Positions 1 through 9,383 of a DNA stretch of 34,413 nt are shown piece by piece. The notes below the pieces were generated by a model. It saw only the letters and a list, made by a program, of their open reading frames with translations, was not told the origin of the DNA and did not search any database. The position numbers and the translations under genes were made by a program. Position 1 is the first letter of the stretch. Every line of letters begins with the position of its first letter. Source of the stretch: a virus (Duplodnaviria > Heunggongvirae > Uroviricota > Caudoviricetes); IMG/VR virus record IMGVR_UViG_2645728091_000016, one strand, 5' to 3'.

Positions 1-192
1 TTATCGCGAGTTTTTAGTACAGATTTTTTTTGATTTACTAATAGTTCCATCATTGCAAACGAACTTTCCATCGGAGGTACAGTGAGAGACACCTCCCTTT
101 TTCCCAGAACAAGGATAATTTTTAGCATAGGTAGTTAGTGGGTTTAATAACAAAGAGCATGATAAAACCACAAAAAATACCTTACCAAGCAT
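1..192 (-). CDS. small secreted cysteine-rich protein (signal peptide plus about 40-aa mature part with 4 Cys); possible moron downstream of cI
   Basis: Complete 63-aa ORF; N-terminus [23 protein letters not shown] looks like a Sec signal peptide; lies downstream of cI on the same strand. Confidence 0.4.
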
Positions 193-207: not shown

Positions 208-777
208 TTACCTAACGTACTTAATTGTTAAACTTATAATTTTCCCAATTATTTCAACATCTTCTATCTTGCACTCGAAGGCTCTGTTTCCACCCTCGAC
301 GAAGATTCTTCCACCGGGTAAACGAGTAATGTCACGGATCGTTATTTCGCCATCAATACTTATTACCCATTTACCATCACGTATATCATCAAATTCCTTA
401 TCACAAATAAATTCAGAATTATTATCTGTGATTACAAAAAGATTCTTGAATGCCGACGGTAGAAATTCTCTATCGAAAATATAAAAACCGTCTTCACACA
501 AGGCCCCATCAGATAATACATATTTAGCAACTTCCATAGTATTTGTATTACCTGAAGTTTGCTTTGAACCATGCCCGGTTGTGAGCCAATTAAGCGAGGT
601 GCCTGTTTCAAGGGCGCACTGGATTACCCATTCTGCTGGGAATGAGTCACGCATGTAGCGTGTGGCGAGTGTACTTTTAGAGATTCCTAAATGATCGCAC
701 AACGCCTGTCGAGTCTTGAATCCATAAGCTTCTACCATGCGCTCTATAGCGCCTCGTCCGCCTTTCTCCAAATTCAT
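208..777 (-). CDS. cI: phage 186-type CI immunity repressor
   Basis: 189 aa from ATG at 777 (track starts at in-frame GTG 783); N-terminal HTH-like segment (QALCDHLGISKSTLATRYMRD); divergent from Apl-like/CII genes as in phage 186. Confidence 0.75.
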   Translation of the reverse strand: MNLEKGGRGAIERMVEAYGFKTRQALCDHLGISKSTLATRYMRDSFPAEWVIQCALETGTSLNWLTTGHGSKQTSGNTNTMEVAKYVLSDGALCEDGFYIFDREFLPSAFKNLFVITDNNSEFICDKEFDDIRDGKWVISIDGEITIRDITRLPGGRIFVEGGNRAFECKIEDVEIIGKIISLTIKYVR

Positions 778-801
778 GGTCACTCCAAGTGAACTTTTAT
801 C

Positions 802-2707: not shown

Positions 2708-3561
2708 GCACCATCCTGAAATGGGCGGGTAATAAAACCGCCATTATGTCCGAACTGAAAAAATACCTTCCTGCTGGCCCGCGACTGGTTGAACCTTTCG
2801 CGGGTTCTTGTGCTGTGATGATGGCGACGGATTACCCCAGCTATCTGGTTGCGGATATTAATCCTGATTTAATCAACCTCTATAAAAAGATTGCCGCTGA
2901 TTGCGAAGCGTTTATATCTCGTGCCAAAGTTTTATTTGAGGAAGCAAACAGTGAGCTGGCTTATTACAACATAAGACAGGAGTTTAATTACTCAACTGAA
3001 ATTACTGATTTCATGAAGGCGATATATTTCCTATATCTCAATCGTCACGGTTACCGTGGTTTATGTCGCTATAACAAGAGCGGGTATTTCAACATTCCCT
3101 ACGGTAATTATAAAAATCCGTATTTCCCTGAAAAAGAAATTCGCGCATTTGCAGAGAAAGCCCAGCGGGCAACGTTTATCTGCGCGAGCTTTGATGAAAC
3201 GCTGGCGATGCTGCAGGTGGGGGATGTGGTGTATTGCGATCCGCCGTATGACGGTACGTTTTCCGGCTATCACACTGATGGTTTCACTGAAGATGACCAG
3301 TATCACCTGGCATCCATTCTTGAACATCGGTCATCAGAAGGACATCCGGTCATTGTTTCTAACAATGACACATCCCTGATTCGTTCGCTGTATCGCAATT
3401 TTACTCACCACTATATCAAGGCAAAACGCAGCATCGGCGTGTCAGCTGGCGAGGGTAAATCTGCAACAGAAATCATTGCTGTTTCCGGGCCGAGCTGCTG
3501 GTTGGGATTTGATCCTTCGCGTGGCGTGGATAGTTCTGCCGTGTACAGAGTGTGTGTATGA
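2704..3561 (+). CDS. dam: Dam-family DNA adenine-N6 methyltransferase
   Basis: [15 protein letters not shown] (SAM-binding motif I) and DPPY (motif IV); ATGA overlaps with both neighbours. Confidence 0.85.
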
Positions 3562-5972
3562 GTCATGACGATATGAACAATTGCAGCGGCTTTAACGAGG
3601 CCGCCGCAGCATTTTCATGGAACGGCTCGAAAAAGGCCATTAACCCTTATCTGGACCCGGCGGAAGTTGCGCCGGAGTCTGCACTTTCAAACCTGATCAC
3701 TCTGTACGCTGCCGATAACGAGCAGGAACAACTGCGCCGCGAGGCACTGAGTGAGCAGGTCTGGGAGCGTTATTTCTTTAATGAATCCCGTGATCCTGTC
3801 CAGCGCGAAATGGAGCAGGATAAGCTCATTAGCCGGGCAAAGCTGGCGCATGAGCAGCAGCGTTTTAATCCGGACATGGTCATTCTGGCGGACGTAAACG
3901 CCCAGCCTTCCCATATCAGCAAGCCGCTGATGCAACGTATTGAATACTTCAGCAGCCTGGGCAGGCCAAAGGCTTATTCCCGCTATTTGCGTGAGACGAT
4001 TAAGCCATGTCTGGAGCGACTGGATTGTGTACGTGACAGTCAGCTATCTGTTTCTTTCCGTTTTATGGCAAGCCATCAAGGGCTGGAGGGTCTGCTGATC
4101 CTGCCTGAAATGAGCCAGGATCAGGTGAAACGCCTGTCCACCCTGGTAGCAGCGCATATGAGCATGTGTCTTGAGGACGCTTGTGGTGATTTGTATGCCA
4201 CCGATGACGTTAAGCCAGAAGAAATCCGCAAGACATGGGAAAAGGTGGCAGCGGAAACCCTGCGTCTGGATGTTATCCCGCCTGCGTTTGAGAAACTTCG
4301 TCGGAAAAGAAACCGCCGCAAACCAGTGCCCTATGAACTCATCCCGGGTTCGCTGGCGCGTATGTTGTGTGCCGACTGGTGGTATCGGAAATTATGGAAG
4401 ATGCGTTGCGAATGGCGGGAAGAGCAGTTGCGTGCTGTCTGCCTGGTCAGCAAAAAAGCATCCCCCTATGTCAGCTATGAAGCCGTGATGCATAAACGTG
4501 AGCAGCGCCGTAAGTCGCTGGAGTTTTTTCGTTCTCATGAACTGGTGAACGAAGACGGCGACACGCTGGATATGGAAGATGTGGTAAACGCCAGCAGCAG
4601 CAACCCGGCGCATCGCCGCAATGAGATGATGGCCTGTGTTAAAGGTCTGGAGCTTATCGCGGAAATGCGCAGTGACTGTGCCGTTTTCTACACTATCACC
4701 TGTCCGTCGCGTTTCCATTCCACGCTCAATAACGGCAGACCAAACCCGACCTGGACAAACGCGACGGTAAGACAAAGTAGCGATTATCTGGTCGGCATGT
4801 TTGCTGCATTTCGTAAGGCTATGCATAAAGCCGAGTTGCGCTGGTATGGCGTGCGGGTAGCTGAGCCGCATCATGACGGTACTGTGCACTGGCATCTCAT
4901 GTGTTTCATGCGTAAAAAAGACCGCCGCGCCATCACTGCATTACTGCGTAAGTTTGCCATCCGTGAAGACCGCGAGGAGCTGGGCAATAACACGGGACCA
5001 CGCTTTAAGTCTGAGCTGATAAACCCGCGCAAAGGTACGCCAACAAGCTATATCGCGAAATACATCAGTAAGAACATTGACGGGCGTGGTCTGGCTGGGG
5101 AGATCAGCAAGGAAACGGGTAAATCCCTGCGTGATAACGCTGAATACGTTAATGCCTGGGCGTCTCTGCATCGTGTTCAGCAATTCCGCTTCTTTGGCAT
5201 TCCGGGGCGTCAGGCTTACCGTGAACTGCGATTGCTGGCTGGTCAGGCGGCAAGGCAACAGGGTGACAAAAAAGCAGGTGCGCCGGTACTGGATAACCCG
5301 CGCCTTGATGCCATTCTGGCTGCTGCTGATGCTGGTTGTTTTGCCACCTATATCATGAAGCAGGGTGGCGTACTGGTTCCCCGTAAATATCACCTCATCA
5401 GAACCGCTTATGAAATCAACGAAGAGCCAACCGCTTATGGCGATCACGGTATTCGTATTTATGGCATCTGGTCACCCATTGCAGAGGGCAAGATCTGCAC
5501 TCATGCGGTGAAGTGGAAAATGGTTCGTAAGGCCGTTGACGTTCAGGAGGCGGCTGCCGACCAGGGCGCTTGCGCCCCTTGGACTCGTGGCAATAACTGT
5601 CCCCTTGCTGAAAATTTGAACCAACAGGAGAAAGATAAATCAGCTGATGGGGACTCCAGAACGGACATTACCAGCATGGATGACAAGGAGTTGCACGATT
5701 ACCTGCACAGTATGAGCAAAAAAGAGCGCCGGGAACTGGCAGCAAGGTTACGCCTGGTGAAACCGAAACGGCGTAAAGACTACAAACAGCGAATTACAGA
5801 CCATCAGCGACTGCAGCTCGTGTATGAGCTGAAGTCCAGAGGATTTGATGGCAGCGAGAAAGAGGTCGATTTACTCCTTCGCGGAGGCAGTATTCCGTCA
5901 GGAGCAGGCCTGCGTATCTTCTATCGGAACCAGCGTTTGCAGGAAGATGATCAGTGGCGGAACCTGTATTAA
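3558..5972 (+). CDS. A: replication initiation endonuclease (P2 gpA-type rolling-circle initiator)
   Basis: About 805 aa from ATG 3558; HUH-type motif TVHWHLM; position after early operon. Confidence 0.9.
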
Positions 5973-6064
5973 TTCCGCGGGCTAACAATTCGTGCTCTTA
6001 ATAATACCAAGCATATCATGCTGATGAATGTAAAAAAACGTTTTACATCAGTAAGATTATTATA

Positions 6065-6084
6065 TACTGTAAATATAAACAGTG
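6065..6084 (+). promoter_or_regulatory. LexA (SOS) box TACTGTAAATATAAACAGTG
   Basis: CTGT-N8-ACAG with AT-rich spacer at 6067-6082, about 45 bp upstream of ATG 6126. Confidence 0.7.
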
Positions 6085-6125
6085 GTTATGCATACAGTGT
6101 TGCTTGTGGTGTCATAGGAGGAAAA

Positions 6126-6314
6126 ATGCAGGACTATTTTTTGGAGTCTTTGAAGCTCCAGCGCATTGATTTTTTTCTTAAGCTTGTAGCGGCTAGTGAG
6201 TGTAGTGATGAAGAGAAGGGGCTGGCTCTGCAGTGGGTTTCTGAATTGACTGATGAACTCATGGCAAAGATCAGAATCCACGAATACAGCCGCTCAATGG
6301 ATGTCATCAGTTGA
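6126..6314 (+). CDS. small SOS-controlled protein, possible Tum-type antirepressor module
   Basis: 62-aa ORF, ATG 6126 with GGAGG upstream; directly downstream of LexA box; position equals 186 tum. Confidence 0.45.
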   Translation: MQDYFLESLKLQRIDFFLKLVAASECSDEEKGLALQWVSELTDELMAKIRIHEYSRSMDVIS

Positions 6315-6324
6315 GGTGACTTTT

Positions 6325-6558
6325 ATGCGCATTGAAATAATGATCGATAAAGAGCAAAAAATTAGCCAGTCTACCCTGGACGCCCTTGAATCCGAGCTTT
6401 ACCGCAATCTGCGCCCCCTGTATCCCAAAGCGGTAATTCGTATCCGTAAAGGTAGCTCTAATGGTGTGGAACTGACCGGACTGCAACTGGACGAAGAAAG
6501 AAAACAAGTGATGAAAATTATGCAGAAGGTGTGGGAAGACGACAGCTGGCTGCATTAA
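6325..6558 (+). CDS. DinI-family protein
   Basis: MRIEIMIDK...LDALESEL...KIMQKVWEDDSWLH aligns along its length to E. coli DinI as recalled; ATG 6325 with GAGGTGA upstream. Confidence 0.8.
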   Translation: MRIEIMIDKEQKISQSTLDALESELYRNLRPLYPKAVIRIRKGSSNGVELTGLQLDEERKQVMKIMQKVWEDDSWLH

Positions 6559-6560
6559 GA

Positions 6561-6603
6561 AACGTTGCTGGCGTCTGAACTTGCTTCTGACGTCAGCAAC
6601 GTT
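6561..6603. terminator. strong stem-loop (15-bp stem with one G-U pair, 13-nt loop) between convergent DinI-like gene and orf177; putative bidirectional terminator
   Basis: AACGTTGCTGGCGTC...GACGTCAGCAACGTT inverted repeat seen directly; no clean U-tract. Confidence 0.35.
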
Positions 6604-6824
6604 GAACAACTAGTTTAGTGGGGCATTAGTCATGGGGTAAAATACAGTAACCATTATTTTCACTTCCGCTCAGATTTAACCGAACGTTAGTTTTGCTACG
6701 TATGATGGGCTGCAAATTACCTTTTGGGATTTGTGATAGATACGAAAATCCTATTAGATGCTTGTTAGACCGGAAGCGCCACTTCGAACGAAAAGTAATG
6801 GCCACTTATGCCGGTTTAAAAGCC

Positions 6825-7358
6825 TTAACCTTGTATAGTTATTTGAATATTTTCTTCATTAACACCAAAGTATAGGGCTAGCCCTGCTTTTGCCTCCTGA
6901 AGTGTTAACGGCTTAACTACATTTTCTTCTTCTTCTTCTTCGTACTCATCACCCGCTTGATCGACAATCGAATTAGTCGGGGTTAATTTGGGAAGAGCTT
7001 TAAATTCCAACTTGTCAGCCTCAATGCCAATGTCTTTGAGGTTGCGATAAGAAACGGGATTCCGATTGCCATCCCATTGTCCTGGGATGTCAATTTCAGC
7101 ATAAGAATTGATGTTTATGATCCAGCGTTTAGGGTTTTCTGGAGCCCTGCTTACTCCCGAGATTCGACCGATCATAAAAGCATGATGATGTTTTGCTTCT
7201 TGTGATCCCCAGTCCTTTCTCGAATTTTGTACACAAACTAAATATTCGTGCTTAGCTGCATGGCTGGCGTCAAGTCTCCATGCTTGGCTTCCCCCTGTGT
7301 TCAAAATCTCTGTTAAACCACGAGCAGTAAGTACAGTAATACAGTTGGTAGTAGCCAT
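6825..7358 (-). CDS. uncharacterised 177-aa accessory protein (orphan cargo gene; candidate anti-phage function)
   Basis: Clean ORF with ATG at 7358 and TAA stop; AT-rich; opposite strand to flanking phage genes; acidic EYEEEEEEN tract and HHH triplet; no family recognised by eye. Confidence 0.7.
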   Translation of the reverse strand: MATTNCITVLTARGLTEILNTGGSQAWRLDASHAAKHEYLVCVQNSRKDWGSQEAKHHHAFMIGRISGVSRAPENPKRWIININSYAEIDIPGQWDGNRNPVSYRNLKDIGIEADKLEFKALPKLTPTNSIVDQAGDEYEEEEEENVVKPLTLQEAKAGLALYFGVNEENIQITIQG

Positions 7359-7675
7359 TGAATTGTGACCCCGTCTTTTTTAGAAAAATACTGTTGATGA
7401 ATGTAGTTTACGTATTTTTTTATGGAGTAGTCAAGTTAGTATTATGCTCATTATTGGCTGTTTGTTGAGTGTTGTGAGTTGGTACTTTGTGTAGTACCTC
7501 TTGATTTATGATGATTAAATCTAAGTTATGACAAAGGGAGGCAGGGGGAACGCGCAGCGCAAGGTGGACAGGAGGCCATAAGGACTCACTTGAAGTAAGA
7601 AAAGATCGATAAAGCAACAATGCATGTCTATGCCGCATGAATTCGCATGATCGTTTGAGGATCGTTTTAGTTGAG

Positions 7676-7703
7676 GCCCGCCAGGAATGGCGGGCTTTTG
7701 TTT
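7676..7703 (+). terminator. rho-independent terminator GCCCGCC-AGGAAT-GGCGGGC followed by TTTTGTTT
   Basis: 7-bp GC stem plus T-tract read from sequence, inside the 480-bp non-coding stretch. Confidence 0.55.
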
Positions 7704-7744
7704 ATGTCATGCAAGTGCATGAAAACCACTACATAAAGCGGGCA

Positions 7745-7763
7745 GGCGTGGCGGGGATACGAG
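7745..7763. other. putative cos site (cohesive-end sequence) GGCGTGGCGGGGATACGAG
   Basis: First 13 nt match the 186 cohesive end as I recall it (GGCGTGGCGGGGAAAGCAT); GC-rich island in AT-rich DNA, upstream of the Q/P packaging genes. Confidence 0.45.
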
Positions 7764-7864
7764 CGCGCGAAATCCCTCTAATTTGAGCTAATCTGTTGAA
7801 AGTCATCCATTATTAATGATAAAAATTAGATGCGGATAATAAAAGTTAACAAAAGGTTGCAAAA

Positions 7865-8680
7865 TTGAACATTAATTTTGATGTTGTGATCAAGAGCGAT
7901 GATCATCAGGTTGATATGGATTATGGGTTGAAGACCCTGGCAGGAACTTCTAGAGTTGTTTCAACTATGGCTGAGGCAATTTTAAAAAAAGAGGTTTCGG
8001 AAAGAAGAACGAGTGTTAATGATATTAGGACACAGCTAAAGCAGAGTTTTAAAAGCTCTTATGGGCAAAATTTCTGTATTGAAGTTAATGATCCCGTTTT
8101 AAAAAGAAAATTAAAGAAAATGGGACACGATGTTTTTTGCGAAGTTATGTCCTATTATATTTCAGAGTCTATGTTTTTGGAGGCTAATAAATTAAGTTCG
8201 GCTGCTCAGGATGTTGTAAATGATCTTAATGATATAGAAGATAAATTGCTGGAGGTATTACGTCGAGGATTAATTGATATGCATAAAATAACTACAATGA
8301 GTAGTTTTAATGTCGAGCTAAATCATCACCCTCGTGGTAATAGGCAGCGAATTGCAACATTAACTCCGAAGACAGCTAAACATATTACAGAGACCGAAGA
8401 GGGTACTAGTGAATATCAGATTGATGTCATTTTTACTCGTTTTAATTCAATGACAGGTAACGGTCGGCTTATTGTAAGAAATGACGATAAAACAACCGCC
8501 TTTGGTCTTGCAAAAGGATTACGATTTGTTCCTTTGCACTTTAAAAAGAAAATTACTGAGAATCTTCATAAGAACAATGGATTAACTAAGCAAAATTGGC
8601 AATATGTAACGTTAACTGTACATGATTTAAAATTGGCTGGCGGGGAAGTAGTAAAATATTTTATTCATGAGATTTCATAG
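7865..8680 (+). CDS. uncharacterised soluble protein, gene A of a two-gene accessory operon (candidate defence sensor/enzyme)
   Basis: 271-aa ORF from TTG 7865 (AAGG 8 nt upstream); alternative in-frame starts GTG 7886 and ATG 7916; AT-rich; no motif recognised. Confidence 0.65.
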   Translation: MNINFDVVIKSDDHQVDMDYGLKTLAGTSRVVSTMAEAILKKEVSERRTSVNDIRTQLKQSFKSSYGQNFCIEVNDPVLKRKLKKMGHDVFCEVMSYYISESMFLEANKLSSAAQDVVNDLNDIEDKLLEVLRRGLIDMHKITTMSSFNVELNHHPRGNRQRIATLTPKTAKHITETEEGTSEYQIDVIFTRFNSMTGNGRLIVRNDDKTTAFGLAKGLRFVPLHFKKKITENLHKNNGLTKQNWQYVTLTVHDLKLAGGEVVKYFIHEIS

Positions 8681-9383
8681 AATGAAAAGAATAATATATA
8701 TTAGTTTTATCATTATAGTTGTAGTTATATCTATGTATTTTTACAACTTTAATACTGGAAAAGGGTTATCTAAAAGTACTGAGGTTTGGGGACAGTTCGG
8801 AGATTATTTGGGTGGGGTTGTTAATCCCATTCTTACTTTTTTATCAATTGTGTTATTGATTAAATCAATAGATTTACAACGTGATGCTAATGCAAGTATC
8901 ATTAATGAAAATAAGAGGCAGGAAAAGCTCGATTATCTGAAGAATTTTGAAATGCGATTTTATAGTTTGATCGACGCACAACGCACTGCATTCGAAAAGT
9001 TTACATTATTAAATGTTGATGGGGTAAATATAAAAGGAGTTGAAGCTGTAAATAAACTTGAGGATTTTATTTTTAACATGAAGAATGAAGGTAAGAGTAA
9101 GGAGGTTGTTTCTAAATTTATTACAGATTGCGATGTGTCTGAATCAATCTACTCTTCAGTACGGCGCTTTTATTTATTAGTCCGTCTCATAGATGAAAAG
9201 CTGGAACGTGAAGAGCGGGACGAATATTATGAGATACTGATTAATATGACTGATTTTCCGTTGGTTAGATTAATTGTTCTTGCATTATGTGTCTATGATT
9301 GGGATATAATAAAGTATATTGACTCTAGTTCTGTTTTAGCGAAGGATGAGTTGGTACAATATCGTGCATATTTTCAATTGTGA
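8667..9383 (+). CDS. uncharacterised membrane protein with two N-terminal TM helices plus about 170-aa soluble domain, gene B of the operon (candidate abortive-infection effector)
   Basis: ATG 8667 (or in-frame ATG 8682) overlapping gene A stop; hydrophobic segments IIYISFIIIVVVISMYFYNF and VVNPILTFLSIVLLIKSI. Confidence 0.7.
   Translation: MRFHRMKRIIYISFIIIVVVISMYFYNFNTGKGLSKSTEVWGQFGDYLGGVVNPILTFLSIVLLIKSIDLQRDANASIINENKRQEKLDYLKNFEMRFYSLIDAQRTAFEKFTLLNVDGVNIKGVEAVNKLEDFIFNMKNEGKSKEVVSKFITDCDVSESIYSSVRRFYLLVRLIDEKLEREERDEYYEILINMTDFPLVRLIVLALCVYDWDIIKYIDSSSVLAKDELVQYRAYFQL

Follow-up and report, generated by a model that had tools for sequence, protein, structure and literature searches.

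Phages of the P2/186 family provide the closest described precedents for the locus analysed here. In phage 186, the tum gene forms the SOS operon transcribed from p95, and the record annotates TACTGT as the -10 hexamer of this promoter and as the first 6 nt of the LexA site (positions 3545-3550 and 3545-3564 of the 186 locus, L001). Tum acts as an antirepressor on CI, and 186 Tum is the only member for which biochemistry is described (cited in PMC3121763). In Fels-2 and PSP3 the gene is split, and the antirepressor activity of PSP3 lies in the upstream gene (Lemire et al, PMC3121763), which the PSP3 record annotates as tumA, “similar to 5' end 186 tum; UV induction of prophage”, next to an annotated tumB. 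For the P2-like prophage of E. coli HS, which carries “tum” and a DinI-like gene, a preprint reports that mitomycin C no longer caused lysis once the ATG of “tum” had been joined to its TGA by an in-frame deletion, and that lexA(Ind-) likewise abolished mitomycin C induction (PMC11195241). Further parallels, known from operon layout, are the Gifsy dinI-gfoA/gftA operons and N15 antC, in which a LexA-repressed small antirepressor inactivates a non-cleavable repressor; the Gifsy antirepressor operons also include a DinI homologue, and non-polar dinI deletions had no significant effect on the induction of Gifsy prophages (PMC3121763).

We analysed a stretch of 34,413 nt from a virus of the Caudoviricetes (IMG/VR record IMGVR_UViG_2645728091_000016), referred to as the window, with a focus on positions 6065-6558 (Table 1). 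We read this segment as the SOS operon of a Fels-2-like prophage of the P2/186 family, in which a LexA-repressed promoter drives a tumA-type antirepressor gene and a separate DinI-like gene, and assign this reading a probability of roughly 0.88. The tumA-dinI switch of Fels-2/PSP3-type P2-like prophages is of an ordinary kind that has been described before, and because earlier work had documented both the split layout and the genetic need for it, the locus adds no new principle.

Table 1. Coordinates of the SOS operon, the immunity region and neighbouring features in the window.
Feature	Coordinates	Strand	Basis or remark
CI immunity repressor, 186-type, presumed TumA target	208..783	-	Phage_CI_repr E 2.8e-33, Phage_CI_C E 8.6e-27 (Pfam)
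Apl/Cox-like, CII and Fil homologues			follow CI in the 186-type immunity region, upstream of gpA
gpA replication gene homologue	end at 5972		upstream of the SOS operon
Probable -35, TTTACA	6042..6047	+	17 nt upstream of TACTGT; preceded by A-tract 6032-6038
Probable -10, TACTGT	6065..6070	+	inside LexA box; assigned by position and conservation
LexA operator (SOS box) 1, TACTGTAAATATAAACAGTG	6065..6084		consensus match and conservation
Possible LexA operator 2, degenerate, CAGTGGTTATGCATACAGTG	6080..6099		13/20 to consensus; overlaps box 1
tumA-type gene, 62-aa antirepressor homologue	6126..6314	+	Shine-Dalgarno AGGAGG 6116-6121; Fels-2 STM2728 family, phrog_698
DinI-family gene (tumB type), 77 aa	6325..6558	+	Shine-Dalgarno GAGGTG 6313-6318, overlapping tumA stop codon
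Strong stem-loop closing the conserved module, without U-tract	6561..6603	+	terminator-like role suggested by position of 186 t95a
177-aa gene in inserted segment	6825-7358	-	phrog_37247
Two overlapping cargo genes	7865-8680 and 8667-9383	+	variable region from SOS operon to portal gene

An initial annotation, made from the sequence, had described a near-consensus LexA box, a 62-aa ORF (ORF62) and, 10 nt after its TGA, a separately initiated DinI-family gene in a different frame, and had likened the whole to the LexA-controlled tum of 186. This description is accurate in each element. The box is the 20-mer at 6065-6084, ORF62 runs from its ATG at 6126 to a TGA at 6312-6314, and exactly 10 nt (6315-6324) separate this stop codon from the ATG of the DinI gene. 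The genes do not share a frame (6126 mod 3 = 0, 6325 mod 3 = 1), and the DinI frame stays open upstream to an in-frame ATG at 6253 (ORF 6253..6558), overlapping the end of ORF62 (6253-6314). The proposed nature of the module, an SOS-controlled induction unit related to tum, also stands: ORF62 corresponds by sequence to the Tum N-terminal domain and the DinI gene to the C-terminal part of Tum, and the box keeps the register of 186 p95. As in 186, ORF62 lies just to the right of gene A and the LexA box overlaps the predicted -10 of the promoter.

Of its 20 positions, the box shares 17 with the LexA consensus (TACTGTATATATATACAGTA). Its CTGT-N8-ACAG core (6067-6082) is the sole such site in the whole window; this 8-base CTGT/ACAG core alone is not significant, as chance alone predicts 0.42 sites, and at least one is present in 36 of 100 shuffles. 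A 20-mer with at most three mismatches to the consensus occurred in none of 100 shuffles. In an alignment of eight loci, including 186, PSP3, Yersinia, ESSI-2, Klebsiella, Fels-2 and the window, ACTGT-N8-ACAGT is invariant and the flanks of the diverged phages do not align, and a LexA box precedes the ORF in all 37 loci scanned. When the upstream regions of 37 homologous loci are aligned on the box, the A-tract and TTTACA are kept in register and the sequence of the 17-nt spacer varies. A generic sigma-70 promoter scan called no site at the SOS operon, because TACTGT agrees with TATAAT at just three of six positions. The promoter hexamers are therefore assigned, as probable elements, from homology with 186 p95, whose -10 is identical, and from their conservation.

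Downstream of the box, a second ACAGT arm follows exactly 15 nt past the first, both in the window and in 25 of the 37 homologous loci, where the corresponding 20-mer reaches up to 17 matches out of 20. Phages 186 and PSP3 lack this arm, as do the short-leader Pantoea-type loci. A tandem overlapping LexA operator is a plausible interpretation of the arrangement and would represent a minor new point.

ORF62 matches phrog_698 along its full length (E 7e-37, PHROGs); no Pfam family covers it. Direct BLASTP searches with ORF62 against 186 Tum and against PSP3 TumA gave no match, so that its homology to Tum is based on profiles and on an intermediate sequence. Profile comparison with hhalign, using a 30-sequence ORF62 alignment and a 13-sequence alignment of the Tum N-domain family, placed residues 2-43 on residues 2-43 with a probability of 97.3% (E 2e-11). 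This contradicts the possibility, named in the initial annotation as one that would overturn it, that homologues reveal the upstream ORF to be unrelated to tum. In BLASTP the bridge is a “tum protein” of 60 aa from a Yersinia phage, which ORF62 matches (E 1e-7) and which in turn matches Tum residues 4-42 (E 2e-10). From these profile and bridging matches we conclude that ORF62 is equivalent, as a protein in its own right, to the N-terminal half of Tum and, as far as sequence comparison goes, a homologue of its non-DinI part.

The predicted structure of ORF62 (AlphaFold, pLDDT 90) is a two-helix hairpin with helices at residues 2-23 and 28-61 and a family-conserved Cys26 in the loop. A sequence search of the PDB with the ORF62 family profile returned no match, and Foldseek comparison of the model with the PDB returned generic helical hairpins only, none with E <= 0.001. 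Pairwise comparison of ORF62 homologues gave a median dN/dS of 0.07, synonymous sites being close to saturation, and at the level of codon comparison the gene is under strong purifying selection.

A longer version of the gene, 98 aa from an ATG at 6018, was considered and rejected. Its start lies upstream of the -35, so that it would enclose the LexA box, and close relatives (Fels-2, Cartapus) carry 1-nt indels in the added part. Many database entries of the ORF62 family are 84-101 aa long (e.g. 96-aa forms) and match ORF62 at their C-terminal end. These overlong entries are consistent with gene callers choosing an upstream ATG such as the one at 6018, which places promoter and LexA box inside the “gene”.

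The product of the downstream gene matches Pfam DinI (PF06183) over profile positions 1-63 of 63 with 81.2 bits (cutoff 24.2, E 7e-23), and aligns to residues 71-145 of 186 Tum with 40% identity (E 1e-23), in agreement with the DinI-like C-terminus attributed to Tum beforehand. Likewise, Tum residues 72-142 match the solved structure of E. coli DinI (1GHH). The window protein covers positions 71-148 of the 151 positions of phrog_189, a span from which it follows that this family includes proteins of Tum length. The module is closed by a stem-loop of -27.3 kcal/mol (z = -5.8), which none of 200 shuffles equalled in folding. It occupies the place of the partial terminator t95a in 186 and marks the point where homology with most related phages stops. 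An Rfam search over 5900-8000 gave no credible match.

Among the described systems, Fels-2 of Salmonella LT2 (STM2728 and STM2726.1) and the E. coli HS prophage are nearest to the window. TumA and DinI of Fels-2 are 95% and 99% identical to the window proteins, and in HS the ORF is 97% and CI 98% identical; both prophages share with the window the same LexA 20-mer, the 10 nt between the cistrons and the same +1 frame relation. They differ from it in what follows, since Fels-2 and HS have a 243-aa gene (the length of 186 orf97) directly after dinI, whereas the window carries other cargo on an inserted segment. In addition, Fels-2 CI is only 40% identical to window CI overall; its N-terminal domain reaches about 69%, its C-terminal domain 32%. 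PSP3 resembles the window in its LexA box, its upstream gene of about 60 aa and its 77-aa DinI-like tumB, 77% identical to that of the window. In contrast to the window, PSP3 has tumA and tumB in the same frame, with a stop codon and 3 nt between them, and its TumA is strongly diverged from ORF62 (a weak in-register profile match, E 0.003, probability 10%). Phage 186 shares the position right of gene A, the -10 TACTGT inside the LexA box, the CI type and the order of the two domains, the N-domain resembling ORF62 and the C-domain the DinI gene. Unlike the window, it has both parts fused in one 146-aa protein, from which internal starts also give DinI-only products according to the annotation, and it lacks the second ACAGT arm downstream of the box. 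The Gifsy operons differ more strongly, as dinI comes first and the phages are lambdoid rather than P2-like.

The primer used for the HS deletion, given in the preprint as ATAGGAGGAAAG-ATG-TGA-GGTGACTTTTATGCGCATTG, matches window positions 6312-6334 exactly and 6106-6128 with one mismatch (PMC11195241). The boundaries of this deletion are thus precisely those of ORF62, and dinI is left untouched.

The initial annotation had left two possibilities for the locus, two coupled genes or a frameshifted homologue of tum, and had suggested comparing it with 186 tum and homologous prophages to determine whether the fused or the split form is ancestral. For this comparison, 33 loci were collected from one-genome-per-species contigs (Escherichia, Citrobacter, Klebsiella, Enterobacter, Serratia, Pantoea, Erwinia, Tatumella and others), together with several phages. 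Because the loci were gathered with the single ORF62 protein as query, the sample consists of relatives of at least 71% identity only. The fused form was encountered only near 186, and split genes or TumA alone elsewhere. The two-gene alternative was upheld and the frameshifted-tum alternative was refuted.

If the locus had arisen by frameshift and decay from a fused tum of the 186 type, its ORFs would be pseudogene fragments. The window parts do correspond in order to the two halves of Tum in 186, and they lie in different frames with the DinI frame open back to 6253. Decay, however, disagrees with the state of the homologues. In 29 of the 33 genome loci the ORF has 62 aa and its own stop (the remaining four have 20, 56, 63 and 72 aa, and one of these, L038, is a clear tumA pseudogene), and wherever DinI is present the spacer between the genes measures 9-13 nt and contains a Shine-Dalgarno sequence. 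Relative frames of 0, +1 and +2 are all found, and the length over which the DinI frame stays open upstream ranges from 3 to 75 nt, a variation that marks the extension to 6253 as incidental. The median dN/dS given above, with synonymous sites near saturation, is that of a selected gene rather than of a remnant, and the module is intact in 1,078 complete E. coli genomes. When 1.84 billion representative proteins were searched exhaustively, 62 members of the ORF62 family were recovered, 22-133 aa long, and in none of these 62 representatives does DinI come after the ORF62 domain. In sequenced phages, fusion into one 146-aa protein is limited to genomes at least 94% identical to 186 Tum, and all other lineages have split genes or TumA alone. 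We regard decay of a fused gene as extremely improbable. A programmed +1 frameshift or stop-codon bypass, by which some ribosomes would make a Tum-like fusion besides the two separate proteins, draws on the overlap of the DinI frame with the end of ORF62 (6253-6314) and on the annotation of 186, whose gene yields full-length and DinI-only products. Against it, inspection of 6253-6314 reveals no slippery motif, homologues do not keep the overlap, and the shift needed would be 0, +1 or +2 depending on the homologue. The small, terminator-like junction hairpin (6303-6320), which spans the tumA stop and the dinI Shine-Dalgarno sequence and was also rejected as a translational-coupling device, is no exception among shuffled sequences (z = -1.2) and is not conserved. 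Moreover, 13 of the 33 loci (L010, L022, L023, L029, L031-L038 and L040) have no DinI gene, and recoding of this kind is accordingly very unlikely. Taken together, the separate stops, variable frames, dN/dS and dinI losses identify the locus as a stable two-cistron operon, and the fusion in 186 looks like a lineage-restricted state as far as the sequenced genomes indicate.

A different objection accepts LexA control and concerns function: the 62-aa protein might be some other SOS accessory instead of a CI antirepressor. The absence of a Pfam family for ORF62, the label “unknown function” of phrog_698 and names such as “levan regulatory protein” leave room for this idea, as does the finding that TumA identity does not track the identity of the CI C-terminal domain (rho = -0.06). 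On the other side, ORF62 is profile-homologous to the Tum N-domain, has the same position and the same LexA-controlled promoter as tum and tumA, and is kept in every locus, even in those that lack dinI. Deletion of the 97% identical HS gene furthermore blocks induction, according to the preprint (PMC11195241). An accessory role is thus improbable, and we retain the antirepressor assignment.

In three loci without DinI (L022, L023 and L040), the stem-loop that follows dinI in the window comes directly after the tumA stop, as if dinI were a cassette that had been precisely gained or lost. In L037 ([Erwinia] mediterraneensis, about 8001-8220), a 72-aa ORF runs into a degraded remnant of a dinI start (atgcacattgaaatcatgatcgatgaa), a case of dinI decay beside an intact tumA.

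By analogy with the experiments in close relatives, the switch of the window prophage would work as follows. In an undamaged lysogen, LexA bound to operator 1 would block transcription because this operator contains the -10 of the predicted TTTACA-17-TACTGT promoter, and the weak second site may assist repression. After DNA damage, activated RecA would trigger self-cleavage of LexA, and the promoter would fire. The resulting transcript would comprise two cistrons, each translated separately. The TumA-type two-helix protein most likely binds CI and ends its repression of the lytic promoter, leading to lytic growth. The DinI-like protein, the counterpart of PSP3 TumB and of the C-terminal half of Tum, most likely tunes the SOS signal by acting on RecA filaments, and is probably dispensable for the switch.

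The window CI is 32% identical to 186 CI. Its Peptidase_S24 match remained below the Pfam threshold (16.7 bits against a cutoff of 23.3), and in the absence of an above-threshold match RecA-stimulated self-cleavage is not expected, so that an antirepressor would be needed. In pairwise comparisons of loci L004-L040, TumA reaches a median identity of 84%, as against 65% for the N-terminal and 36% for the C-terminal domain of CI. Between genera, TumA proteins retain 71-97% identity; compared with the window, CI N-terminal domains are 37-91% and C-terminal domains mostly 26-42% identical. Among locus pairs whose TumA is at least 95% identical, identity of the CI C-terminal domains falls to 27%, and near-identical TumA proteins are found with CI C-terminal domains just 27-42% identical. 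TumA identity correlates weakly with that of the CI N-terminal domain (rho 0.23, Mantel p 0.04) and shows no correlation with that of the C-terminal domain. At the level of sequence identity, TumA is far better conserved than its presumed repressor target, which is unexpected for a strictly cognate pair and constitutes a minor new point.

This conservation gap could result from mosaic recombination. Tentatively, and as a proposal that we consider doubtful, Fels-2-type TumA may be a broad-specificity antirepressor whose target is a conserved surface on the N-terminal, DNA-binding domain of CI, and tandem overlapping LexA operators would hold so potent a trigger tightly shut. Given such a broad specificity, one SOS-induced TumA could cross-induce heteroimmune P2-like prophages in the same cell.

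The tumA-dinI module is present in 1,125 of 5,426 complete E. coli genomes, about one in five, where it is annotated as “hypothetical protein | DinI-like family protein”. It marks a P2-like prophage as SOS-inducible through an antirepressor and not through repressor cleavage, and thereby helps to predict prophage mobilisation by DNA-damaging antibiotics. The practical value of the finding is confined to improved annotation. RefSeq, phage and UniRef records label the 62-aa gene “hypothetical protein” or “levan regulatory protein”, and TumA-type antirepressor would be a better name. The names “levan regulatory protein” and “levan regulatory domain protein” occur in a UniRef cluster (P0052) and in two Klebsiella phage records.

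Beyond the module, a segment of about 1 kb (6610-7620) looks like an insertion that separates the dinI stem-loop from a conserved piece some 150 nt long (7621-7772), inside which lies an intrinsic terminator (7673-7698). In Klebsiella phage Kp4845-2, unlike in the window with its insert, the conserved piece follows 26 nt after the module. The 177-aa gene of the inserted segment has no Pfam or PADLOC match, and SOS read-through transcription would be antisense to it. Where the window has its two cargo genes, 186, Fels-2 and HS have an orf97-sized gene. Neither cargo gene has a PADLOC match; the first (7865-8680) matches phrog_13337, and DUF7946 at sub-threshold level only. At the other end of the window, beside cI, a gene at 1-192 (- strand) encodes a protein of 63 aa (phrog_6000) whose N-terminus is hydrophobic and which contains several cysteines. 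The matching place in the prophage of E. coli HS, between cI and int, is taken by a gene for a “YdcA family protein”.
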